64,000 bases of DNA from a virus (IMGVR_UViG_3300025129_000005); one strand, 5' to 3'. Shown: positions 1 through 57,278, counted from the first letter of the stretch. Made by a program: numbers and translations. The notes: generated by a model not told the origin, from the sequence alone.

Positions 1-290
1 ACAACTTTGTATTATCTGCATCAGAAGAGACGTATAAGGAAATCTTGGACGGATTATATAAAGGCGAATTGGATAAGATAAGGGCTATTCTAAAATCCAA
101 TCCTATTGACTATACAAGTCTTTATATGTTTATATGTGATATATTATTTAATGATGATGAGAAGTTTAAAAACGCAGGTGTGGCGATAGAATTGGTTGGT
201 GAACATGACTATCGCGATAATATGGTAGCTAACAGGGAGATAAACTTTATAAGTATGTGTGTGAAAATGATGAGAGGTGGTGCGGTATGA
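1..290 (+). CDS. Clamp loader large subunit (T4 gp44/RFC-like), C-terminal part; starts before the window
   Basis: C-terminus 'GEHDYRDNMVANREINFISMC' resembles the gp44/RFC collar end; lies upstream of gp62-like and gp45-like ORFs. Confidence 0.6.
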   Translation, partial: NFVLSASEETYKEILDGLYKGELDKIRAILKSNPIDYTSLYMFICDILFNDDEKFKNAGVAIELVGEHDYRDNMVANREINFISMCVKMMRGGAV

Positions 291-481
291 AATCAAAAAA
301 GAGGTATGACAATCAAAAGAAAAAGAACTTTGAAGTGACTCCTGATATCTTAAAAAAGCTACAAGATTCTTTGAATGATAACATAAAACCAGATTTCAAG
401 GAGAAAACTGATGATAAAAAGAAAGTCCCCAACAAAAAAAGGAAACCATCTAACAGAGGTGTTGAACGCAATAAACACTAA
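287..481 (+). CDS. Small basic hypothetical protein
   Basis: ATG overlaps upstream stop; Lys-rich ORF. Confidence 0.35.
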   Translation: MKSKKRYDNQKKKNFEVTPDILKKLQDSLNDNIKPDFKEKTDDKKKVPNKKRKPSNRGVERNKH

Positions 482-770
482 AACCCCTTGTAATTATAAT
501 CCGAAAGAGGTTAGTGCATGGGTTATCTCATTGTTTCTGTCAGAAGATCCAGAACTTATTGAAATTGTTAATAAAATAAATCAATATCATTTTTCCCTTG
601 ACGATAAACTAATATTCCGGTATTATGTATCAAAGATTCCAAAAAAGAAGAGATTTATTAAATTTACAAAAAAATCCAAGGAATCAAAAGATAATGAGAA
701 AGTTAAATCTCTCATGGAAACTTACGGAGTCTCAAAAAGAGAAGCACTTCTTTCAATAGGGAAAGGGTAG
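411..770 (+). CDS. Clamp loader small subunit (T4 gp62-like); true start probably downstream of 411
   Basis: 'IPKKKRFIKFTKK...VKSLMETYGVSKREAL' typical of gp62-like proteins; synteny. Confidence 0.65.
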   Translation: MIKRKSPTKKGNHLTEVLNAINTKTPCNYNPKEVSAWVISLFLSEDPELIEIVNKINQYHFSLDDKLIFRYYVSKIPKKKRFIKFTKKSKESKDNEKVKSLMETYGVSKREALLSIGKG

Positions 771-2403: not shown

Positions 2404-2432
2404 TTGACATACCGAGGACGAGTTGATAATAT
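2404..2432 (+). promoter_or_regulatory. Sigma70-like promoter of the Ubl gene
   Basis: TTGACA(2404)-17 bp-TAATAT(2427). Confidence 0.6.
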
Positions 2433-2509: not shown

Positions 2510-2728
2510 ATGACTGAAAGTACTACTCTTACCATTAATGGTTCCACCAACACTATCGAAGCCGGTTCTTCTTTTCGCGATACTGTTGTTAACGCTGCAC
2601 GTAACGCAGGTCTTGGCAAGTTCCGGGTTATTCTGAACGGTTCTGAAATTGATCCTGCAGATGCACCAGAATCCCTTAACCCCAGCATGTCTCTGGAAAT
2701 TCGCCCTTATGAAGTGGCTGGTGCTTAA
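2510..2728 (+). CDS. Ubiquitin-like (beta-grasp, ThiS/MoaD-like) modifier, 72 aa, ending ...EVAGA
   Basis: SD GAAAGGAG then ATG 2510; 'LTING...FRVILNGSEI...SLEIRPYEVAG-A' follows the ThiS/Ubl pattern; upstream of E2/E1/JAB. Confidence 0.8.
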   Translation: MTESTTLTINGSTNTIEAGSSFRDTVVNAARNAGLGKFRVILNGSEIDPADAPESLNPSMSLEIRPYEVAGA

Positions 2729-2748
2729 CCGAGTATAACCATTTAATC

Positions 2749-2780
2749 GAGTTGGGTCAATCAAGACCCAACTCTTCTTT
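2749..2780 (+). terminator. Intrinsic terminator after Ubl
   Basis: Perfect 10-bp stem GAGTTGGGTC/GACCCAACTC then TTCTTT. Confidence 0.75.
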
Positions 2781-2799
2781 ATAATTTTAAACTTTACTG

Positions 2800-2828
2800 T
2801 TGACAATCCCAATCATTAAATATAAGAT
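2800..2828 (+). promoter_or_regulatory. Sigma70-like promoter of the E2-like gene
   Basis: TTGACA(2800)-17 bp-TAAGAT(2823). Confidence 0.55.
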
Positions 2829-2863
2829 GTTCATATCGGTTTGATTTACAGAAAGGAATTAAA

Positions 2864-3769
2864 ATGGCAGTGTGGGATGTGAATATCGCTGAATCGATTA
2901 AAAGTGACATAGATTCAGTATTGGATGATATCAATATTGATAATATTAAATCCGAGGGTATGACCGTTCGTATCGGTGGTAGACTTGTTAAATTAGAATT
3001 CACCGAAGAAACTTCTCTCCCGGAAGATGAAATTAGGGCTGAATATTCAGCAAAACTTACTGAAAAACTTCAAGCCATAAAAAATGTTGTTAATAAAAAG
3101 ATCTCTGAAATGTCTTATATGGTTGAACAGAATCGTATTGATTTTGAGGAAAAAGAGCGAAATCTTCAAGTACGCTTGTCTAGTGCAAACTTGATGCCGG
3201 ATATCACGTATGAACAAGCAAAAGCCGGACTGTCCGTGGTCAAGGGTCACCCAAGTTACAGAGAAAATGATGTTTTAACTTGGTTATATCAAGGTGTTTA
3301 TTGGCCAAAATTTGTTGATGGTGAGCCGATTGATCCGAAATATGCAAAACGTCTCGTTTCTCCGGTAACACTGGTAATTGTTACTGTTAAAGATAAAGTT
3401 CGTTCTGTAACGGTTTGTAAAACAATCGGTCTTTCCAAATTTAAACATTATCATTCAATGGGTAATAGTTCGGATTGTTGGGGTCAATGGAAAATCCCGT
3501 CAAATTGGTCTGAACCTAAAGATATTCTATCTATTGCCCGCCATGCTATGGGGGTTCTGGAAAACGTTAATACTCAGTCTCCGGGTAATCGTAACCCGGA
3601 TGGTCTTCCCCGACTGAATACTTTGTCACAACACGTTCTTAGGGGTGAAGCAGCTGTTAACGTTGAATATGTGACTTCACAATCCGATGATAGGGCTGGT
3701 ATTGATCGTAACACTGACAGGGGTGATCAAGGAACTCGCGGTTCGGTAGGTCAAGTCTGGTCAACATAA
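2864..3769 (+). CDS. E2/UBC-like conjugating enzyme with N-terminal coiled coil
   Basis: 'FKHYHSMGNSSDCWG' resembles the E2 HPN...C active site; 'VLENVNTQSPGN' resembles the UBC C-terminal LLxxPNxxSPAN motif; between Ubl and E1. Confidence 0.65.
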   Translation: MAVWDVNIAESIKSDIDSVLDDINIDNIKSEGMTVRIGGRLVKLEFTEETSLPEDEIRAEYSAKLTEKLQAIKNVVNKKISEMSYMVEQNRIDFEEKERNLQVRLSSANLMPDITYEQAKAGLSVVKGHPSYRENDVLTWLYQGVYWPKFVDGEPIDPKYAKRLVSPVTLVIVTVKDKVRSVTVCKTIGLSKFKHYHSMGNSSDCWGQWKIPSNWSEPKDILSIARHAMGVLENVNTQSPGNRNPDGLPRLNTLSQHVLRGEAAVNVEYVTSQSDDRAGIDRNTDRGDQGTRGSVGQVWST

Positions 3770-3777
3770 TTTCAAAA

Positions 3778-3805
3778 AAAAGAGGGTTTGAAAAGACCCT
3801 CTTTT
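3778..3805 (+). terminator. Intrinsic terminator after E2-like gene
   Basis: AAAAGAGGGT / ACCCTCTTTT inverted repeat. Confidence 0.65.
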
Positions 3806-3842
3806 AATTTCAGAACCTCTCCGATGGATGGTCAAAAAGTGA

Positions 3843-3871
3843 TTGACATATAAAAATTTGTGTGGTAGTTT
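3843..3871 (+). promoter_or_regulatory. Sigma70-like promoter of E1-JAB
   Basis: TTGACA(3843)-17 bp-TGG.TAGTTT, extended -10. Confidence 0.55.
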
Positions 3872-3907
3872 AGCATTATCTTTGGGCATAAAAGAAAGGA
3901 ATTTATT

Positions 3908-4498
3908 ATGAGTTTTTATGATCGGCAGGATTTGATTGATGGTATTAATAACAAAATTAAAGTTTGTGTAATCGGGGCTGGCGGTATCGGTTTTCATGTC
4001 GCTAAAGGTCTTGCAATGTCAGGTGTCGAAACAATTTATGTTTTTGATCCTGATACCATCGAAGAATCAAACCTTAACCGTCTTGATGTAACAGTTGATG
4101 TTATTGGGAAAAATAAAGCTGATGTGGTCAAGCAGGTGGTAAAATCTCTTCGTCCGAACTGTATGGTCAAATCGTTTCCGTTTCCACTGAAAGATCATAC
4201 CTATCCTAAAGGTGTTGACTGGATTGTTGACTGTACTGATAATCATAAAAGTCAGTTAGAAAACCAACGTATGGCTCAAGAAAATGAAGCACGGTATCTT
4301 AAAGTGGGGTATGACGGGACCAGGATGTCGATCAATGATCGAGTCGCAACATGGGATTCAGGAGAAACCCAAGATGGGTATCGTATAACCCCGAGTTGGG
4401 CACCACCAGCTATCATCGTTGCGTATCTGGGTGTGGCCAAAATCCTCAAATATCACAATGGCGAAATGGGTTGCGATTTATCAGAAATATATCGATAA
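3908..4498 (+). CDS. ThiF/MoeB/E1-family adenylyltransferase (minimal E1)
   Basis: 'VIGAGGIG', 'DPDTIEESNLNR', 'GKNKAD', 'VDCTDN'. Confidence 0.92.
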   Translation: MSFYDRQDLIDGINNKIKVCVIGAGGIGFHVAKGLAMSGVETIYVFDPDTIEESNLNRLDVTVDVIGKNKADVVKQVVKSLRPNCMVKSFPFPLKDHTYPKGVDWIVDCTDNHKSQLENQRMAQENEARYLKVGYDGTRMSINDRVATWDSGETQDGYRITPSWAPPAIIVAYLGVAKILKYHNGEMGCDLSEIYR

Positions 4499-4514
4499 TA
4501 AATTGTGAGGTATT

Positions 4515-5603
4515 ATGGGGAAGAAAAGAAAATTAAAAAAAAAACTAAAAAAGCATAAGAAGGGATTTTATATGTTTGGTATTAAAGAAAATAAAGCACT
4601 TGAACTTATTTCAGATAAAGACTTTGATGATCTGATCAAACTCCATGATAAGGGCGGGGCATTTAACGTAAAAGAATCTAAATTCAATTGTTGGGATTCG
4701 GGTATTAAGATCATCAAAACTTGCGGTCATATAAATGTGTCTAAGTATCACATCGAATTTCACCTTCTTGCACATAAAAAAATTGAAAAATTAAAGAAAG
4801 TTTATCCTAATTTGGAATGGTTGGCGTACTTGGTTGGATCTGTTGACCACGATAATCATAAAGTATCTGTTACTGACTTGGTTATTCCTGATTCTCAAAA
4901 GGTTACCGGCACTAGCGTTTATAACGTTGAATATAATTGGGAATCCTTGGCTGATAATAAAGTTATAATTGGTGTTATCCATAGTCATAATACCATGGGA
5001 GCATTCTTCTCAGGGACAGATGATGCTTATATCAACCAAAATCATGACGTATCAATTGTGGTCTCTACTGCTGCAGGTCGTGAAATCAAAGCGCAAGTCA
5101 GGGTTAAAACTCTTTGTAATTCTTACATTCTTGCCGAAAACATTGAGTTTTCAGTAAAATACCCCCAACTTTTTGATGAAAGTGAATTTGAGTCCGAACT
5201 TTCAGAGAAAATAATTTCTCATTCTTCAATTAGTAGCTGTAGAGGTATTATAGGTCGAAGCTTTTTGAATAATTTCACTGGTTATGATACCGAAAACAAT
5301 GATTTTCTTGATCTTGAAGAACTTGAATATGAATATCCCGAAAAAATGACCAAACTAGATATTCGTGATGAACTTCTTTTCTATTATGAAGAAGAAGATG
5401 TTGATGAGATGATTAGAGATGGATCAGCTGTCAATGAACTTAAAATTATTCGTAAAAAAGTAAAAGAGAATTCGGATAAAGGCTTTTTGGATCAAGAGGA
5501 TGGCTGGTCTTCGGTAGACTTTGAAGAAGAATTTGAAGAAGACGAGGATGAGGACGAAGATTACGAATTTGATGATAAATTTGATTATTTTAAGTTGTTG
5601 TAG
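4515..5603 (+). CDS. JAB/JAMM/MPN metalloisopeptidase with acidic C-terminal tail
   Basis: 'EWLAYL' Glu plus 'HSHNTMGAFFSGTDD', matching HxHx7SxxD. Confidence 0.9.
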   Translation: MGKKRKLKKKLKKHKKGFYMFGIKENKALELISDKDFDDLIKLHDKGGAFNVKESKFNCWDSGIKIIKTCGHINVSKYHIEFHLLAHKKIEKLKKVYPNLEWLAYLVGSVDHDNHKVSVTDLVIPDSQKVTGTSVYNVEYNWESLADNKVIIGVIHSHNTMGAFFSGTDDAYINQNHDVSIVVSTAAGREIKAQVRVKTLCNSYILAENIEFSVKYPQLFDESEFESELSEKIISHSSISSCRGIIGRSFLNNFTGYDTENNDFLDLEELEYEYPEKMTKLDIRDELLFYYEEEDVDEMIRDGSAVNELKIIRKKVKENSDKGFLDQEDGWSSVDFEEEFEEDEDEDEDYEFDDKFDYFKLL

Positions 5604-5652: not shown

Positions 5653-5686
5653 GGAGTATTAACTTAAAGGTTAGTACTCCTTTTTT
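5653..5686 (+). terminator. Intrinsic terminator ending the Ubl cassette
   Basis: GGAGTATTAAC / GTTAGTACTCC then T6. Confidence 0.75.
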
Positions 5687-21340: not shown

Positions 21341-21874
21341 ATGAACGCGAAAAAAACAGCCAGACGTAAAGCAATTCTTGATGGGATTATGGAATCACTA
21401 AAACATGATGAGGTTTTTGACCGTGTAAAATACAAACAAAAGACCGAATCAGAACTACAAAACCGTATGGCAGTACCTTTGAATAGAACTGTTGCAAAAC
21501 TGTTCGAGGAATATAAGGGTTATAACCATGACCGTGCTGTATCAGAGGCACGTGTGAGATTTGCAAGTGAGGAAGATCCGAATACAACAGTCAAAAACTT
21601 TATGTTCATGGGGGTACAACATCGCCCAGACTTCACTATAGATTTTGATGATATTCGTATCGCAGTTGAAATCAAAAAAGGTCATTCAGGTCAATCAGTC
21701 CGTGAATGTATTGGTCAATCCGTGGTATACAACACAAATTATGATTTTACATGTGTTTTATACGTGGATACCTCCGCCGATGAGCGTATTAAAAACTCCC
21801 TTAACGGTGAGCGTGAGAAAGAATTGATTGAATCTCTTTGGAAAAATCATAATGTAATGTTGGACGTTATTTAA
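21341..21874 (+). CDS. PD-(D/E)xK nuclease-fold protein
   Basis: 'RPDF...AVEIK'. Confidence 0.6.
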   Translation: MNAKKTARRKAILDGIMESLKHDEVFDRVKYKQKTESELQNRMAVPLNRTVAKLFEEYKGYNHDRAVSEARVRFASEEDPNTTVKNFMFMGVQHRPDFTIDFDDIRIAVEIKKGHSGQSVRECIGQSVVYNTNYDFTCVLYVDTSADERIKNSLNGEREKELIESLWKNHNVMLDVI

Positions 21875-22836
21875 TGACAAGTTTATGGGAAGACGTGTTC
21901 GATCAACCTGAACCAGAAATCGAGAAAGTGTCTATTGTTCCAAAGGATGAGCATGTTAATATTCTCAAGCGAATGGACGATTACGAAAAAAATCATTGCT
22001 GGCAGTATGATATAAGACTTAAAAATATGGAACAAGACTTAATTGATGTCGGATTAACCAAGGAGATTACAGATAACTTACGAGTATCAGATTTTGAATT
22101 TCGCTTTGTTGAGGATAAAAAAGAACGACAAAAATTAATTGAGTTTATAAAAAGACATGAGTGGTTAGGGAATCTATCACAATTCACCACGCATTGGTTT
22201 GGTGCATATTATAACGACATTCTATCAGGTGTCGTATTGATGAATATGCCTAATGCGTTTTCTAATGTTGTTGGTGAAAACACAAAAAACCTTGAGAGAC
22301 TGATAAGCAGGGGTGCCTGTATTTCATGGAGTCCCAAAAACTTAGCATCCTCTATGTTGATGTGGTGTATTAATTGGATGGTTGCTAATACCAGATACCG
22401 TGTATTTTCGGCATACTCCGATCCAACAGCTAAAGAACTCGGAACGATTTATCAAGCATGTAATTTCTATTACATAGGACAAAAATCTGGTACCACAAAA
22501 AGATATGTGAATCCTTTCACTGGCAGGCTCGTATCTGACCGATTTTTTAGGGCAAGGAGCGCATATAAGCAGTATGCTAAACAATTGGGGATTGAATGGC
22601 AGAAAAACTGGAACAATGATCAATCAATACTGTGGCATAATATGCCTAAAGAAATAGAACAACAATTAAGACAGCAATCCAAGAAAATGCAATCAGAAGC
22701 AAAATATTTTACATTTCCTCCTAAACATAAGTACATATATATCAAAGGAAAGACAAAAAAAGAAGATAAAATGCTTAAGACTATCTTTATGGAGAAAACA
22801 AAGGTCTATGATTACCCCAAAAAAAGGGGAAATTAA
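21874..22836 (+). CDS. Mom-like GNAT-fold DNA modification protein
   Basis: 'PKNLAS', 'SAYSDP', 'GTIYQACNFYYIG'. Confidence 0.65.
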   Translation: MTSLWEDVFDQPEPEIEKVSIVPKDEHVNILKRMDDYEKNHCWQYDIRLKNMEQDLIDVGLTKEITDNLRVSDFEFRFVEDKKERQKLIEFIKRHEWLGNLSQFTTHWFGAYYNDILSGVVLMNMPNAFSNVVGENTKNLERLISRGACISWSPKNLASSMLMWCINWMVANTRYRVFSAYSDPTAKELGTIYQACNFYYIGQKSGTTKRYVNPFTGRLVSDRFFRARSAYKQYAKQLGIEWQKNWNNDQSILWHNMPKEIEQQLRQQSKKMQSEAKYFTFPPKHKYIYIKGKTKKEDKMLKTIFMEKTKVYDYPKKRGN

Positions 22837-22934: not shown

Positions 22935-25685
22935 ATTTTTCGTAATATTCACTATGACACAAAACGTAGTCGTGTATATCTTTGGGAACAAACAACAGGA
23001 ACCAATGACTATCGTATAATAGATTGGGTTCCGTATGTCTTCGAGCCTGACGATCACGGACATATTGAAACTGTTGAGGGAATTCCTGTAAGAAAGGTCG
23101 AATTCAAATCATACAGTGAGTATGTAGACTACCAGAAAAATAACATATCCAATGTATATGAAAATGAAAGCCCAAAAGAAATCCAATTCTTATCCGAGTG
23201 GTATCACAATATCCCTGATGATGCTATTGATCCTCCGAAACTTAAGATATACTCATTAGATATTGAGGTTCATACCGAAAAGGGGTTTCCTAAACCCGAT
23301 CAAGCAGCGTATCCAATTCCATTGATTAATGTCAGAGAGTTTGGAGAGGGTGGTATTAACAAGTCTTGGGGAACGAAACCATACACTGGTGAATATGATG
23401 TTGATTTTGTTCATTGTAAAAATGAACATGACCTATTAACACAGTTCTTTGATTGGTGGTATCGTAACGCTCCTGATGTTGTTACGGGCTGGAATATATC
23501 ACCGCATAACAAAACTAATGAGAGGGGAGGGTTTGACCTTCCATATCTTGTCAATCGATCAAAGAATCTCTTTGGCACGAAAGCAGATGTATATAAAAAA
23601 CTGTCACCGATTGGCATCGTTCGTTGTTGGGATGATAATAAATCTGGTGCTATGTATGTTGATATTGCAGGTGTATCTGTTCTTGATTATTTTGCGTTAT
23701 ACAAATGGTATACAACCAAGAACCCAGAGAACTATAAACTTGATACAATCGCACGTGAAGAATTAGGATTGGGTAAATTGGATTATTCAGAATACACCGA
23801 TCTTCGTACTCTATATAATGCTAACTGGAATTTGTATGTCGAGTACAACATTATTGATAACCAGAGAATTATGGAGCTTGAAGATAAATTAGGGTATATT
23901 TTGCTTGCACAATCACTTGCTCTATTATGTCGTTGTAAAATGGAACACTATACCGCATCGACCCATTTGGTTGAAGGTTTGATGTTAACGCACTTTAGAC
24001 GTAATAACCTTTGTGCGCCTAGAATGGAAGGTGGACACCAAGAATGGTTCCCTGCGGCTTTCGTCAAAGAACCTCAAAAAGGTCAGTATGACTGGATTAT
24101 AGACCTCGATATTGCATCATCCTACCCTACAGCTATCATCACCCTTAATATGTCATCAGAGACCTATTATGGGCGTTGTATCGGATATAAAGACATACAC
24201 GGAAGATGGATTGATACTGTTACAGGACGTGGTGACATGGATATTGTGGATGTTGCGCGGGCAGAAGCCCCAATATGTGATTTTGTTAAGAATCGTGAGT
24301 TTCCAACATTCAAACTATTGAAGGGTGAAGACGTTGTTTTAATGAAAGGTGACAAATTAGATAAATTCAACCGAGCATTAAAAGCGGGGCTATTAGCAGT
24401 TGCGCCGTCAGGATCTATGTATTTACAAAATAAAAAGGGATCATATGCTCAGGTTGTCCAACAGACTTATGCAAAAAGACAGGAGATCAATAAACTCAAA
24501 AAAGAGTTCAAAGGTAAAGCAACAAGAGCGAGGAATGAAGACAAAATTAAAGAATACAATATTCAGGCGAATAAATATCATGCATTACAATGGGCGTTAA
24601 AGATTGTCATCAATTCAGCATATGGTGTTACAGGTGTTCCTTATTCAAGGTTCTTTAATATTCATACCGCAGAGGCGATTTGTTCTTGTGGACGTAGAGC
24701 AATCATTACAGGACAAAATTACGTCAACCGTTGGTTCCATGATGGTGTCTGGAAGAACGAGGAAACCCTTGAACTTCTGAACAGATTAGGAGAAGTTGAT
24801 ACAGATTTCAACATCATAGAAGACATGGTATCATATATTGATACGGACTCCGTTTTCATTAAGTTGGGTGCATTTGTGGACAAGGTTGTTGGTGGGGATT
24901 GGAAAACTGCTTATGAGCAGGAGTTAATTTCTGATACAATCCTGGCATTATCAAAACACGTAGAGACATATGTTAATGATAGTGCTTATGAAGAGACACA
25001 AGTGGGTGAATACAATTCAAGGATGAGCAAAGAAGAGTTCAGTATCATGTTCAAACAGGAGATTGTCTGTAAGTCAGCATTGTTCATTACGAAGAAAAAG
25101 TATGGATATCATGTTGTTAATGAGGAAGGTGTACCATGTGATAAGATTGATGTTACTGGAATGGAAATTATCAGGTCAGAAACACCATCAGCATTTAAAG
25201 ACGCATTGAAAGATTTATTGAGTATGGTGTTGCGAAACGCACCTGATGATGTTATATTTGAGACATACAAAAAAGCAAAAGCAGAAATAAAGTTCACTTA
25301 TCCAGAAGAGATATCAGAGAACAAGGGTGTCAAAGGGTTGGGTAAGTGGTTGAGGGATGGTGAACCTATGAAGGGAACACCGTATCATGTGAAGGCGGTT
25401 GCCGCTTATCATAAGCTGTTGAGAGAATTGGAACTTGAAGATAAGTACATCAAAATAGAAGAAGATACCAAGAATAAACTTGTGTATGTGAAAAAGAACC
25501 CTTATGGAGTCAAATGTGTAATGTATGACCGTTGGCCCAAGGAGTTCACAGATGCAGGGGTTGAGCCAGATATAAAACAAATGATCGAAAAGTACCTCAC
25601 AAATAAACTCAGAATGTTACTTGAACCTGCGAAAAGGGAACATATATTAGAACAAAACCAAGCATTTAACGCATTTTTTGGATAA
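22935..25685 (+). CDS. Family B DNA polymerase (T4 gp43-like) with 3'-5' exonuclease; predicted ATT start
   Basis: 'DIE' ExoI lies upstream of the ORF-track start; 'DIASSYP', 'KIVINSAYG', 'YIDTDS'; frame open from 22923 with no ATG/GTG/TTG before 23322. Confidence 0.93.
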   Translation: MFRNIHYDTKRSRVYLWEQTTGTNDYRIIDWVPYVFEPDDHGHIETVEGIPVRKVEFKSYSEYVDYQKNNISNVYENESPKEIQFLSEWYHNIPDDAIDPPKLKIYSLDIEVHTEKGFPKPDQAAYPIPLINVREFGEGGINKSWGTKPYTGEYDVDFVHCKNEHDLLTQFFDWWYRNAPDVVTGWNISPHNKTNERGGFDLPYLVNRSKNLFGTKADVYKKLSPIGIVRCWDDNKSGAMYVDIAGVSVLDYFALYKWYTTKNPENYKLDTIAREELGLGKLDYSEYTDLRTLYNANWNLYVEYNIIDNQRIMELEDKLGYILLAQSLALLCRCKMEHYTASTHLVEGLMLTHFRRNNLCAPRMEGGHQEWFPAAFVKEPQKGQYDWIIDLDIASSYPTAIITLNMSSETYYGRCIGYKDIHGRWIDTVTGRGDMDIVDVARAEAPICDFVKNREFPTFKLLKGEDVVLMKGDKLDKFNRALKAGLLAVAPSGSMYLQNKKGSYAQVVQQTYAKRQEINKLKKEFKGKATRARNEDKIKEYNIQANKYHALQWALKIVINSAYGVTGVPYSRFFNIHTAEAICSCGRRAIITGQNYVNRWFHDGVWKNEETLELLNRLGEVDTDFNIIEDMVSYIDTDSVFIKLGAFVDKVVGGDWKTAYEQELISDTILALSKHVETYVNDSAYEETQVGEYNSRMSKEEFSIMFKQEIVCKSALFITKKKYGYHVVNEEGVPCDKIDVTGMEIIRSETPSAFKDALKDLLSMVLRNAPDDVIFETYKKAKAEIKFTYPEEISENKGVKGLGKWLRDGEPMKGTPYHVKAVAAYHKLLRELELEDKYIKIEEDTKNKLVYVKKNPYGVKCVMYDRWPKEFTDAGVEPDIKQMIEKYLTNKLRMLLEPAKREHILEQNQAFNAFFG

Positions 25686-33203: not shown

Positions 33204-34226
33204 ATGAGAAAATTATCAAGTATTCAGAAAATTATGAACATTCAACCAATTGAAGGTGCTGATCGAATTGAAGTCGCAACTGTCAATGGTTGGAAAGTTG
33301 TTGTCGGGAAAGGTGATTTTAATGTAGGCGATTTGTGCGTCTATTTTGAAATTGATTCTATTCTCCCATTAGACAAATTCCCTGAATTAGAAAATTCCAA
33401 AGGGCGCATCAAAACTATTCGTCTTCGTGGTCAACTCTCACAGGGGTATTGCATTACTTTCGATAGATTTAAGAAAATTCTTGATGATGGTGATTTTTGG
33501 GATAAAATGGATGAAGATATCTCCATTGTTAACTGGAAAGTAGGGGATGATGTAACTAATTTCCTTGGTGTCGAAAAATACGAACCTCCTATTCTGTTCA
33601 AAAATGGTGATGCAAAGGGGGTCTTCCCTTCTTATATCCTCCCTAAGTCCGATGAAGATCGTATTCAATCCAACATGGATTACCTTGACAAGTTTAAAGG
33701 TCTTCCTTGGGTGGCAACCGTCAAATATGATGGTACTTCCGCGACTTTTGGATATGACAACGATGAGTTCTTTACATGTTCACGTAATCTTAAAATCCAT
33801 GATGGTGATAACGTTTATTGGAATATTGCCCGTAAATACAAACTTCACGAAATCCCCCCTTATCTTGTTGTTCAGGGTGAAGTTGTAGGACCTGGAATCC
33901 AAAATAACCGTCTCGGACTCAAAGATATAGAATTCCATATTTTTCGTGTTTATGACCAACTCAAAAAGAGGTATTTGTTTTATGATGAAAGAATTAAATT
34001 ATGCAAATCTTATGGTATTCCACATGTCGCATTAGACTCTCGCGGTGATCATTTTGATATGACACTCGAAAAAGTACTTGACATTGCAGAAGGAAAATAT
34101 AATAATACCAAGAATGAAAGGGAAGGACTCGTATTTGAAGTGGATGGTTTGGTGAACACTGAATTTGGTGGACACTTGAGTTTTAAAGTAATAAGTAACA
34201 AATTCTTACTTAAAGGCGGGGATTAA
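33204..34226 (+). CDS. ATP-dependent RNA ligase, DRB0094-like, with N-terminal OB module
   Basis: 'IQPIEGADRIE', motif I 'VKYDGTS', 'QGEVVG', 'EGLVF', 'FKVISNKFLL'. Confidence 0.88.
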   Translation: MRKLSSIQKIMNIQPIEGADRIEVATVNGWKVVVGKGDFNVGDLCVYFEIDSILPLDKFPELENSKGRIKTIRLRGQLSQGYCITFDRFKKILDDGDFWDKMDEDISIVNWKVGDDVTNFLGVEKYEPPILFKNGDAKGVFPSYILPKSDEDRIQSNMDYLDKFKGLPWVATVKYDGTSATFGYDNDEFFTCSRNLKIHDGDNVYWNIARKYKLHEIPPYLVVQGEVVGPGIQNNRLGLKDIEFHIFRVYDQLKKRYLFYDERIKLCKSYGIPHVALDSRGDHFDMTLEKVLDIAEGKYNNTKNEREGLVFEVDGLVNTEFGGHLSFKVISNKFLLKGGD

Positions 34227-44387: not shown

Positions 44388-45914
44388 TTAGTTTTCTTCT
44401 CTGTCCTCTTTCTCTACCTTCTTCTTTTTTTTATTCTTGATATAATCAGGTCTATTGGTAACCATATAAACTCTAGCAGGATTAACCACTGATCCAGATC
44501 TTATCATAAAATCTTTATTGATTAGAACAGGTGTTGTTTTATGACTACGATCATTTAAATTAAACGGTACTTTTGAATAATTAACACCTTCAAATGTGAC
44601 ATTTAATTCTACAACTACCCTCTTCTCATCCAATTTTTCTTCCGAATCAGAATTATTTTTCATTCTAATTTCGTTTAATTTCGTCCCTGACATCTTTTTA
44701 CCCATAGTAGACCATGTTACCTTAGACCCTTCGACATTAACGTCTTGTGCGTCAAGTGAGGAGCTACCAGCGGCATTTCCGGTGTCAAACCGAGCATGTA
44801 ATTGACCGATACCCTCGATCTCTATGGATTCAATCACACCAATCTGCTGTGGTGGTCTATTCCAATTTATGGTATTCTTTGCATATTGCATCACCATATC
44901 AACAATATCTAATTTGGTCAGTTCCTCTATACCATCTGTACCGGGGGAAGAGTTAACCTCAAGAATATATGGGTTTCCTTCAACATCAAACATGATATCC
45001 ACGCCGCACCATTTACACTGAACTGATTTTGCAGCTTTAACTGCCAATTCTCGTATTTCCTTGGTTGGTCTATATTTACCAGTCTTTCCGCCTAGATGAA
45101 CGTTTGAACGGAAATCGTTATCAACGACCTTTCGCTTCATTGCCGCAATAACCTTGTCACCCAAAACATGAAGTCGAACATCATGGTCAGACTTAACGTA
45201 TCTCTGCAACATCATCTCAACTTCATCACCAACAGCCCATATAGCTTGAAGTGTGGACTTTAATGCTTTGTACTCATTGACAATGAATACACCTTTCCCC
45301 TGAGTACCACTTAATGTCTTAACAACAACAGGAAATCCACCGCCAACTTTTTTGTGTGCCAACTCAAGCATTTCCTCTGTAGGAACTAGCGCAGTATCAG
45401 GAACAGGAAGACCAGCTTCAACTAGCTTTAATGTTGTTAAATACTTGTCTTCACATGTTTGAATAGAAGACTTTTCGTTCAAGAAACAAAAACGATATCT
45501 CTCAAGACGTGACATAAGGTTTTGTGAATATCGATGAAACATAACACCGCGTCTGGCAATGACAAAAGTTTTATCACGATCAATCTCATGACCTTCTTTA
45601 TCACCAACGTTATAGATCTTGATAGTTCCTTCGTCGCCTTTCTCAAGATAAGCAGTGTCAGCGAATGCTGTGTAAAAAGGAACATCATTTTTGCTACACC
45701 ATTTCTCTATTTTGATGATAGTTGGGTTCTTTTTTGACATCTTTCTATTCTTGGAATCGGTAGATGATGTTAGTATAAGGATATTAAACCCTTCAACCTC
45801 ATCAATATCAACCATTTCCTCTTCGGGATCAGAGTCAATACCATCTGCTTCATGGATAACAGAATTTAACTTTAACTTTTCAAATTCTTCTTTAAGTGAC
45901 ATTTGATACCCCAT
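44388..45914 (-). CDS. RimK-family ATP-grasp ligase fused to a retropepsin-like protease domain
   Basis: 'VVKTLSGTQGKGV', 'DNDFRSNVHLGG', 'CGVD', 'LEVNSSPG'; C-terminal 'ARFDTG...LNDRS..LI'. Confidence 0.85.
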   Translation of the reverse strand: MGYQMSLKEEFEKLKLNSVIHEADGIDSDPEEEMVDIDEVEGFNILILTSSTDSKNRKMSKKNPTIIKIEKWCSKNDVPFYTAFADTAYLEKGDEGTIKIYNVGDKEGHEIDRDKTFVIARRGVMFHRYSQNLMSRLERYRFCFLNEKSSIQTCEDKYLTTLKLVEAGLPVPDTALVPTEEMLELAHKKVGGGFPVVVKTLSGTQGKGVFIVNEYKALKSTLQAIWAVGDEVEMMLQRYVKSDHDVRLHVLGDKVIAAMKRKVVDNDFRSNVHLGGKTGKYRPTKEIRELAVKAAKSVQCKWCGVDIMFDVEGNPYILEVNSSPGTDGIEELTKLDIVDMVMQYAKNTINWNRPPQQIGVIESIEIEGIGQLHARFDTGNAAGSSSLDAQDVNVEGSKVTWSTMGKKMSGTKLNEIRMKNNSDSEEKLDEKRVVVELNVTFEGVNYSKVPFNLNDRSHKTTPVLINKDFMIRSGSVVNPARVYMVTNRPDYIKNKKKKKVEKEDREEN

Positions 45915-56147: not shown

Positions 56148-57278
56148 ATGATCGTTTGGAGAGAAAAAAAAATAATGAAACCTTATAAGATATTCGCAGA
56201 ATTAATAGAACAAGATGCATTGGATCAATTCCATCAAGCAATGGAACAAAAGTTTGTCGTTAAAGGTGCATTGATGCCTGATGCCCATAAAGGATACTCT
56301 TTGCCTATAGGAGCCGTTGTCGCCACAAAAAACGTCATTGTTCCTTCTTGGGTTGGATATGATATCGGTTGCGGTATGTGCGCAATCCCTACTTCATTCA
56401 CCCTTTCCGATATATATCAAAACGCTCAAGCGATATGGGCTAGAATTCAAGAAGCTATACCTGTTGGATTTAATCATCATGATACACACCAGACATGGGA
56501 TCGATATAGCACTATCGAAAAAACTGAAACCGCTATCAATATTTTTAATTACAAAAACGGTATTGGTTGGAGACAACTCGGAACCCTTGGCGGCGGCAAC
56601 CATTTCATTGAAATCGGTTCAGACGAAAATGGAGTCATATGGATCATTGTTCACTCAGGATCTCGTGGTATCGGTCATGCCATAGCTACCCATTACATGA
56701 AAATTGCAGGTGGAGGTAAAGCCCGTGAAGGATCCTATGGATTGGATGTTAATTCTCCAAACGGAAAAGACTACATCATTGATTTAAATTTTGCTCTTGA
56801 ATTCGCATTAGAAAACCGATTTAAAATTATAAATCAAGTCAGCAATGTTATAGAGGAATACTGTAAAGGGAGTTTGGACTGGTCTTGTTTTATAAACAGA
56901 AACCATAACCACGCAGAAGAAAAAGACGGTCTGTGGATTCATAGAAAAGGCGCAACCCATGCAGAAGCAGGCATGGAAGGAGTCATTCCCGGTAACATGA
57001 GAGACGGATCATTCATTGTTGTCGGAAAAGGTAACCCTGAATCACTATACTCCAGTTCCCATGGTGCCGGTCGAGTTTTAGGTCGAAACGTCGCAAAGAA
57101 GATATTAGATATAAATGACTTCACAGAAACTATGAAAGGTATTGTAGCAAACGTAGATGATAGTACATTAGATGAATCCCCTTTTGCTTATAAAAATATT
57201 TTTGATGTCATGAAACAACAAGAGGAATTAGTCTCAGTTAAATATTACGTCAAACCAATAATTAATGTTAAAGGATGA
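56148..57278 (+). CDS. rtcB: RtcB RNA ligase
   Basis: 'MPDAH', 'GYDIGCG', 'GTLGGGNHFIE', 'HSGSRG', 'HRKGAT', 'SHGAGR', 'DESPFAYK'. Confidence 0.96.
   Translation: MIVWREKKIMKPYKIFAELIEQDALDQFHQAMEQKFVVKGALMPDAHKGYSLPIGAVVATKNVIVPSWVGYDIGCGMCAIPTSFTLSDIYQNAQAIWARIQEAIPVGFNHHDTHQTWDRYSTIEKTETAINIFNYKNGIGWRQLGTLGGGNHFIEIGSDENGVIWIIVHSGSRGIGHAIATHYMKIAGGGKAREGSYGLDVNSPNGKDYIIDLNFALEFALENRFKIINQVSNVIEEYCKGSLDWSCFINRNHNHAEEKDGLWIHRKGATHAEAGMEGVIPGNMRDGSFIVVGKGNPESLYSSSHGAGRVLGRNVAKKILDINDFTETMKGIVANVDDSTLDESPFAYKNIFDVMKQQEELVSVKYYVKPIINVKG

Follow-up and report, generated by a model that had tools for sequence, protein, structure and literature searches.

A probable ubiquitin-like protein-conjugation cassette of large uncultured T4-like phages

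Four adjacent open reading frames (ORFs) on the plus strand of IMGVR_UViG_3300025129_000005, a 64,000-nucleotide stretch of viral DNA that was analysed whole (the window), encode a small ubiquitin-like protein (Ubl; the tag), an E2-like protein, a minimal ThiF-type E1 and a JAB/JAMM metallopeptidase (Table 1). Judged from their sequences and structural models, the four genes probably constitute a phage-owned module for ubiquitin-like protein conjugation, and we infer both the conjugation and its role. To our knowledge, bacterial Ubl conjugation has been characterised only as anti-phage host immunity, in type II CBASS (cyclic oligonucleotide-based anti-phage signalling system), Bil and Bub. No description of a complete phage-encoded Ubl/E1/E2/JAB cassette was found in the literature, many subscription papers lying outside the search, and in Iyer et al. 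2006 (PMC1779556) the sole mention of phages concerns the tail-assembly TAPI/TAPK pair. An earlier note on this DNA had proposed such a pathway. The four ORFs that it described are there, and so are its motifs: the 301-residue E2-like protein has HYH (residues 195-197), DCWG (204-207) and VLENVNTQSPGN (231-242), and the 362-residue JAB protein has IHSHNTMGAFFSGTDD (HSH-x7-S-xx-D).

The tag was modelled with AlphaFold2 (AF2) from a 27-sequence alignment and adopted a beta-grasp fold (predicted local distance difference test, pLDDT, 84.8). The best 50 rows of a Foldseek search of the PDB were all ubiquitin, SUMO or other Ubl folds, or designs or domains of that fold (probability ~1, E 3e-3 to 1e-2), and a bacterial BilA-type Ubl was among them. 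The C-terminus of the family, examined in 27 database homologs and 21 locus orthologs, is an invariant ...P[YF][DE][VE]AG; about half of these proteins stop at the Gly, and the others add one to six unrelated residues. A fixed VAG followed by a variable overhang is, at the level of sequence, the classic mark of a modifier with a reactive Gly carboxylate. Gly71 is accordingly the predicted reactive C-terminus of the window tag, and Ala72 would be removed. In E. aridi BilA, a single Ala likewise follows the Gly and must be removed by BilC (Chambers et al., PMC10557695). The tags of more distant relatives (L003:1077-1349 and L012-L022) are extended at the N-terminus by an acidic stretch of about 20 residues that contains a conserved (Y/V)WD motif, and the window tag has no such stretch.

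The AF2 model of the E2-like protein (mean pLDDT 77.8, about 90 over residues 110-260) consists of an arm followed by a globular domain. When residues 106-259 were re-aligned with VIA to dozens of E2s, Z scores of 6.0-6.5 were obtained over about 118 aligned residues, with a root-mean-square deviation of about 4.3 Å, and the match spanned nearly the whole UBC domain (residues 3-134 of UbcH5-type E2s). In a wide search of 48,161 representatives that was not Foldseek-based, the rows among the top 50 that fell on the globular domain were two E2s only, the remainder being long-helix matches to the arm (residues 1-109). A Foldseek search of the PDB with the whole model returned nothing at E <= 1e-3, and its weak list was dominated by E2 and UEV entries.

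The sequence features of this domain are arranged as in an E2. Invariant positions are F193, Y196, H197, C205, W206, G207, N236, S239, P245, G247 and L248, and the C-terminal tail of about 40 residues is also conserved (R277, G279 and W299) and ends VWST. Across 38 close and 59 remote relatives, His195-Tyr-His197, Cys205, Trp206 and Gly207 vary little or not at all. In the model, H195-Y-H197 and D204-C205-W-G lie between the fourth strand (178-186) and the central helix (218-231). The 10-residue spacing of H195-x-H197...C205 is one that we take to match that between the HPN motif and the catalytic Cys of UbcH5-type E2s. The 301-residue protein is thus likely, as modelled, to be a real if highly diverged E2, an assignment that rests on the moderate fold match, the motif order and the gene association, and not on sequence homology.

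The E1 is a single minimal adenylation domain of 196 residues. It matched Pfam ThiF above the cut-off (E 3.4e-26), and a profile built from 20 orthologs matched, in the PDB, Uba1 (4e-17), MccB (2e-16), UBA5 (2e-13), MoeB (4e-13), ThiF (2e-12) and Cap2 (1.5e-11). The motifs needed for adenylation are invariant: the GxGGxG nucleotide loop, the NLNR arginine, the NK lysine and the DCTD Mg site. R58 and D108 are among the adenylation residues. Residues 136-164 connect the final strand of the Rossmann sheet to the next helix, and from this order of elements they are taken as the crossover loop that bears the catalytic Cys in ThiF, UBA5 and Cap2. No Cys occurs at any position of this segment in 117 homologs, down to 47% identity, and the E1 has no Zn-binding CxxC pairs. 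Trp149, Gly157, Tyr158 and Ser163 are 100% conserved in the same 117 homologs, and the E1 of a remote cassette (L029, below) retains ...GYTVTPSW. A relay from an E1 Cys to the E2 Cys, as in Bil, therefore cannot apply. The combination of a Cys-less E1 with a Cys-bearing E2 was not found described in the literature searched, and we know of no conjugating E1s without Cys that have been described other than those of Bub. The sole invariant crossover-loop residue of Bub E1s is a Tyr, which forms a Ubl~Tyr oxyester (PMC11601596).

The JAB protein matched Pfam Prok-JAB above the cut-off (E 3.8e-8), and both its Glu (EWLAYL) and its HSHx7SxxD motif are invariant in 20 orthologs. It consists of a basic N-terminus, a conserved N-domain (with conserved W and C), the JAB core and a variable, acidic C-terminal tail. 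Its sole meaningful NCBIfam match was to PRTRC_A (1.8e-8, below the cut-off), the other row being at chance level (E 0.15). The C-terminal tails are hypervariable across the family, that of the window protein (5250-5603) being acidic; several CxxC Zn-ribbon units were seen in the tails of some relatives (the JAB genes of L013, L019 and L022 were examined), and among contigs that encode an identical E2-like protein the JAB is 362, 343 or 349 residues long.

Most of what the earlier note had said of the individual proteins thus holds. Its beta-grasp assignment agrees with the AF2 model and the Foldseek search, its ThiF/E1 adenylase with the Pfam ThiF match and the PDB profile matches to E1s, and its JAB peptidase with intact HSHx7SxxD with Pfam and the 20 orthologs; the need that it saw for trimming the terminal Ala is supported by orthologs that end at the invariant Gly or carry variable extra residues. 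Its E2 claim is supported by a UBC-like fold, the order of the His/Cys motifs and gene linkage; no sequence match to E2 families was found. The Cys-to-Cys relay that it had assumed must be abandoned, as the E1 crossover segment is free of Cys in all 117 homologs.

The order tag-E2-E1-JAB is kept in 20 of the 21 related loci long enough to judge, and the joint occurrence of the four families is therefore not due to chance. Variations in spacing were also seen: a 122-residue CxxC Zn-ribbon gene is inserted between E2 and E1 in one locus (L005:6933-7301), and gaps of about 0.8-0.9 kb separate E2 from E1 and E1 from JAB in another (L007, 6909-7736 and 8326-9270). The remote cassette L029 (3167-6170) has the order E1-JAB-tag-E2, and all four of its proteins are homologous to those of the window (E1, 34% identity, 1e-37; JAB, 41%, 2e-30). 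Its tag contains KFRVF and ends ...PYDKAA, with Ala-Ala and no Gly, and the reactive end of the tag may differ in this lineage. Joint inheritance that survived a rearrangement of the four genes speaks strongly for a joint function of their products.

The family is widely distributed in metagenomes. The E2-like protein has 64 homologs in a set of 5.8 billion proteins, all unnamed and metagenomic and on contigs of up to 240 kb, and is present on 17 IMG/VR viral contigs. Searching 1.84 billion cluster representatives with a profile of the UBC-like domain gave 256 matches, of which 76 had E <= 1e-30. The remote ones are 300-600 residues long and keep HYH..CWG and N..S....P, their N-terminal arms differ, and one is directly followed by a ThiF gene. 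Among 185,579 species genomes, the UBC-like domain was found on one contig only, in the metagenome-assembled genome (MAG) ‘Candidatus Izimaplasma bacterium HR2’. This 27.9-kb contig (JRFF01000039.1; L028 / L011) is also classed as viral in IMG/VR and is probably a phage contig that was binned into the MAG; the family therefore belongs essentially to phages. The cassette (by megablast) and the E2-like protein (by tblastn) had no match in 50,697 deposited phage genomes, so there is no cultured or deposited relative. The identical 301-residue protein occurs in 103 blocks of a public assembly collection, on contigs to >200 kb (e.g. JGI 3300025839), and the same phage recurs across many samples, aquifer and sediment samples among them.

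Several observations weigh against assigning a complete conjugation pathway to these genes. The E2 fold match is moderate, its Z of 6-6.5 lying below the tool's caution line of 8. No match to an E2 hidden Markov model (UQ_con, Prok-E2) was found for the protein, for 38 members of its family (E up to 10) or for 59 remote relatives (Pfam only, E up to 0.01), and PDB sequence searches with the protein and its profile gave coiled-coil noise only. The terminal Gly is not universal, as one tag ortholog ends ...DEASAS and one remote tag ...DKAA. One locus (L018, 5317-9558) has the tag and E2-like genes, followed by a glycosyltransferase-like gene and gp32, and no E1 or JAB within 6 kb. The placement of Tyr158 in the crossover loop is drawn from the order of elements and not from a solved or superposed structure. 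Lastly, prediction of a complex of two E1 copies, the tag (1-71) and the E2-like protein (100-301) gave scores of 0.31 and 0.29 against a mark of 0.32, which speak neither for nor against binding.

A pathway that would accommodate these parts can be proposed. The tag would be expressed from its own promoter and terminator unit as a 72-residue precursor, from which the JAB would remove Ala72 to expose Gly71; this step is proposed because of the invariant ...VAG with its variable overhang and the action of BilC on BilA. The minimal E1, presumably a ThiF-like homodimer, would then adenylate Gly71 with ATP/Mg, since all of the adenylation residues are present. As the E1 lacks a Cys for thioester formation, transfer could follow one of two routes: Cys205 of a docked E2-like protein may attack the acyl-adenylate directly, or Tyr158 (or Ser163) of the crossover segment may form an oxyester first, as in the Bub E1, before passing the tag to Cys205. 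The resulting E2~tag thioester would pass the tag to amino groups of target proteins. As no E3 is present, target choice would fall to the E2 itself, through its variable N-terminal arm and its conserved C-terminal tail. The JAB may also reverse the modification, which would account for the retention of this peptidase where the tag of a relative already terminates in Gly.

The absence of a catalytic Cys from the E1 is also a feature of MoeB, and the best NCBIfam matches of the E1 are ThiF/MoeB models; the tag could on this basis be a sulfur carrier that, once adenylated by the E1, is thiocarboxylated (as are ThiS, MoaD, TtuB and CysO) and gives its sulfur to a tRNA, a DNA base or a cofactor. 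The JAB would then only mature the carrier or recycle adducts, as Mec+ and QbsD do, and the Cys of the 301-residue protein would carry a persulfide. JAB, E1 and Ubl trios do occur in sulfur pathways (Iyer et al. 2006, PMC1779556), and the phage has other nucleic-acid-modifying genes (Mom-like and RtcB). However, four related phage contigs (160-235 kb, one 98% complete) yielded no gene for a rhodanese, a cysteine desulfurase or a PP-loop protein (TtuA/NcsA/TilS-type). PF00581, PF00266 and PF01171 are absent from them, and the search turned up a single weak fragment, below threshold and containing stop codons; partner enzymes could still come from the host. The fourth protein, which is always linked, is UBC-like with an E2-like His/Cys arrangement and does not have a rhodanese or sulfurtransferase fold, the tag ends AG rather than GG, and its fold matches favour ubiquitin and SUMO. 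A sulfur carrier is therefore considered very improbable. In a different explanation, ligation proceeds without an E2. The E1 adenylate would be attacked directly by an amine or hydroxyl group, on a protein or else on a lipid, a small molecule or a nucleic acid, and the 301-residue protein would serve as an adaptor or scaffold without catalytic activity, or would be another kind of His/Cys enzyme, such as a peptidase or acyltransferase, that resembles UBC. The archaeal SAMP and Thermus TtuB systems do conjugate without an E2, the protein has no sequence link to any E2 family and a fold Z of only about 6.5, and the complex prediction gave no support. Set against this, His195/His197, Cys205, Trp206 and Gly207 are (nearly) invariant in the relatives, both the 38 close and the 59 remote ones, and this conservation argues for catalysis; the His/Cys residues lie where E2s have their active site, between strand 4 and the central helix, and the protein stays linked to E1, JAB and tag even under changed gene order. 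Ligation of this kind is accordingly judged unlikely.

A third possibility, which is more about what the system does for the phage than about its chemistry and could hold alongside conjugation, is counter-defence: the cassette may subvert a host Bil, type II CBASS or Bub system, with the JAB stripping host conjugates or the tag acting as a decoy or capping host enzymes. Hosts are known to possess anti-phage Ubl systems (PMC10557695, PMC11601596), the cassette lies behind early-type promoter matches, and the hypervariable JAB tails are what an arms race would predict. A decoy or deconjugase would not, however, need a conserved adenylating E1 and a catalytic-looking E2, and all four parts have been retained over deep divergence, so that counter-defence is decidedly unlikely as an explanation of the cassette.

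The window is part of a large phage genome that encodes DnaB, a family-B DNA polymerase, an RNA ligase (33204-34226, plus strand), RtcB (56148-57278, plus strand), a Mom-like protein (21874-22836, plus strand) and clamp-loader proteins, and the source of the cassette is a large uncultured T4-like phage. The minus strand (44388-45914) encodes a RimK-type ATP-grasp ligase that is fused to a Zn-protease-like domain. The phage origin claimed in the earlier note is supported, the family being carried by phage contigs, as is the position that it gave beside replisome genes, since clamp-loader and sliding-clamp genes lie upstream. A strong Shine-Dalgarno sequence (GAAAGGAGA) precedes the ATG of the tag gene. 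Two sigma-70-like promoter matches were found (Table 1), the count of such sites in the region being no greater than in shuffled controls. The hairpin after the tag gene would, from its sequence, allow the tag to be made in excess over the enzymes.

Table 1. Features of the cassette and of the adjoining clamp region (positions in the window)
Feature	Position	Strand	Remarks
Tag precursor gene	2510-2728	+	72 amino acids, C-terminus RPYEVAGA
E2-like gene	2864-3769	+	301 amino acids
E2-like N-terminal arm, residues 1-104	2864-3175	+	AF2: two short helices, conserved hairpin (R36, G38, K43), 54-residue helix
UBC/E2-like domain, residues 105 to about 259, and C-terminal tail	3176-3769	+	Alignment and fold match
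Minimal E1 (ThiF-type) gene	3908-4498	+	196 amino acids
JAB/JAMM metallopeptidase gene	4515-5603	+	362 amino acids
Sigma-70-like promoter match, TTGACA-17-TAATAT with TG	2404-2432	+	5' of tag gene; consensus match only
Second sigma-70-like promoter match, TTGACA-17-TAAGAT	2800-2828	+	Ahead of E2-like gene; consensus match only
Terminator-like hairpin, 10-bp stem and T tract	2749-2774	+	Immediately 3' of tag gene
Terminator-like hairpin, 12-bp stem and T tract	5653-5680	+	3' of JAB gene, closes cassette
gp44-like clamp-loader gene, end	3-290	+	PHROG match
gp62-like clamp-loader gene	411-770	+	PHROG match
Sliding clamp (gp45/PCNA-like), 245 amino acids	1123-1860	+	ESM Atlas model match; upstream of tag gene

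The two clamp-loader genes matched PHROG phrog_168 (1.3e-5) and phrog_225 (5e-21). The protein encoded at 1123-1860 has no Pfam or PHROG match, and its ESM Atlas model matched archaeal PCNA (template modelling score, TM, 0.75) and clusters of gp45 clamps (TM 0.73-0.79). In all related loci that reach upstream of the tag, the clamp-loader and clamp genes come first, then an optional small gene, then tag, E2, E1 and JAB, and this synteny holds down to about 30% clamp identity; no clamp lies near the remote cassette L029. In the window, a neighbouring gene at 1892-2395 encodes a 167-residue protein. The linkage may simply be shared T4-like synteny. The sigma-70-like promoter matches and the fixed position after the clamp suggest an early or middle role, exercised at or near replication or else directed at host takeover or counter-defence. 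A more specific proposal is a hybrid cascade, in which an E1 that uses a Tyr/Ser oxyester or no intermediate feeds a Cys E2, acting on the phage replisome and most simply on the sliding clamp; it is regarded as quite unlikely. A clamp-docking motif in the E2-like protein was considered and rejected: the protein ends ...VWST, an ending found in no other ORF of at least 60 amino acids, and the polymerase ends ...QAFNAFFG. The JAB tails are too variable for such a motif to be defined. The C-terminus of the family-B DNA polymerase (23322-25685, plus strand), ...EQNQAFNAFFG, is similar to the C-terminal tail with which T4 gp43 binds the clamp.

If conjugation by the cassette is confirmed, bacterial viruses would also use protein tagging, as eukaryotic viruses exploit ubiquitin. 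A cassette owned by lytic-type large phages would add two new protein families, the tag and the E2, and its 196-residue Cys-less E1 may be the smallest working E1 for conjugation. The E1 also bears on how E1 chemistry evolved among MoeB-type adenylases, the oxyester enzymes of Bub and thioester E1s. The position next to the clamp provides a concrete first hypothesis for a target, and tagging of the clamp would, if true, be a bacterial-virus analogue of PCNA ubiquitination and SUMOylation. The parts are small, appear soluble and can be tested in E. coli.

Bil (BilABCD; operon type 6d of Iyer, Burroughs and Aravind 2006) shares with the cassette its four parts, with a stand-alone tag, a stand-alone Cys E2 and no E3. 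Its tag has a single or double beta-grasp, and in both systems the tag precursor carries residues after the Gly, which BilC removes and the phage JAB would remove. The E1s differ: BilD is a large protein that contains an inactive and an active adenylation domain, an inserted CYS domain with the catalytic Cys, and a Zn site (PMC10557695), whereas the 196-residue phage E1 has none of the extra domains, nor the Cys or the Zn site. In the E2, BilB has a Cys with a downstream His (CEHH), whereas the phage protein has a His-x-His 8-10 residues upstream of the Cys, like the HPN...C of eukaryotic E2s. Bil is host-encoded and anti-phage, and the cassette described here is phage-encoded. PADLOC recognised the cassette only through generic E1-E2 models, which matched the E1 part only, with nothing for the tag, E2 or JAB; no Bil-type model of PADLOC, Pfam or NCBIfam matched the tag or the E2-like protein, and neither protein, nor any member of its alignment, had a match in Pfam, NCBIfam, PHROG or PADLOC.

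Bub (the former 6E operons; Ye et al., PMC11601596) resembles the phage cassette in the Cys-free crossover loop of its E1 with an invariant Tyr, in the inclusion of a JAB peptidase and, as proposed for the phage, in a homodimer-type E1 on which the E2 docks. Bub E2s, however, use a Ser (with His/Asp or Lys/His) and the system proceeds through oxyesters throughout, whereas the phage E2 has an invariant Cys. Bub tags are multi-beta-grasp proteins and the phage tag has a single beta-grasp. Bub operons also add the DUF6527 serine protease BubE, and their E1 is fused to JAB or E2, unlike that of the phage; a Pfam scan of the four cassette proteins found no DUF6527 (PF20137) match.

PRTRC (ParB-related, ThiF-related cassette) systems, which are found on plasmids and integrative and conjugative elements (NCBIfam TIGR03734-03742), likewise combine a short ThiF-type E1 with a JAB on a mobile element, near DNA-maintenance genes. 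The JAB scored 34.2 bits against PRTRC_A (TIGR03735; cut-off 101.8) and the E1 36.2 bits against PRTRC_ThiF (TIGR03736; 3.9e-9, cut-off 144.75). PRTRC proteins B, C, D, E and F gave no match when every member of the tag and E2 alignments was scanned, and, unlike PRTRC, the cassette contains no ParB gene. Type II CBASS shares the homology of the E1 adenylation domain (PADLOC E1-E2 models, 1e-16; Cap2, 1.5e-11) and a JAB partner, Cap3. Cap2, however, is an E2-E1 fusion with a catalytic Cys on both domains and conjugates the CD-NTase, not a beta-grasp tag, and no CD-NTase is present here.

Eukaryotic E2s (UbcH5/UBE2D) have no detectable sequence similarity to the phage E2-like protein. They present the same order of helix, four-strand meander, active-site loop and central helix, with a His tripeptide 10 residues before the Cys; unlike them, the phage protein has a 105-residue helical arm, a 40-residue tail and a VLENVN..S....PxGLP loop after the central helix. 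The cassette lacks defining features of each of Bil, Bub and PRTRC. It is most like Bil in its workings, its E1 is most like that of Bub, and its JAB and E1 are faintly PRTRC-like.

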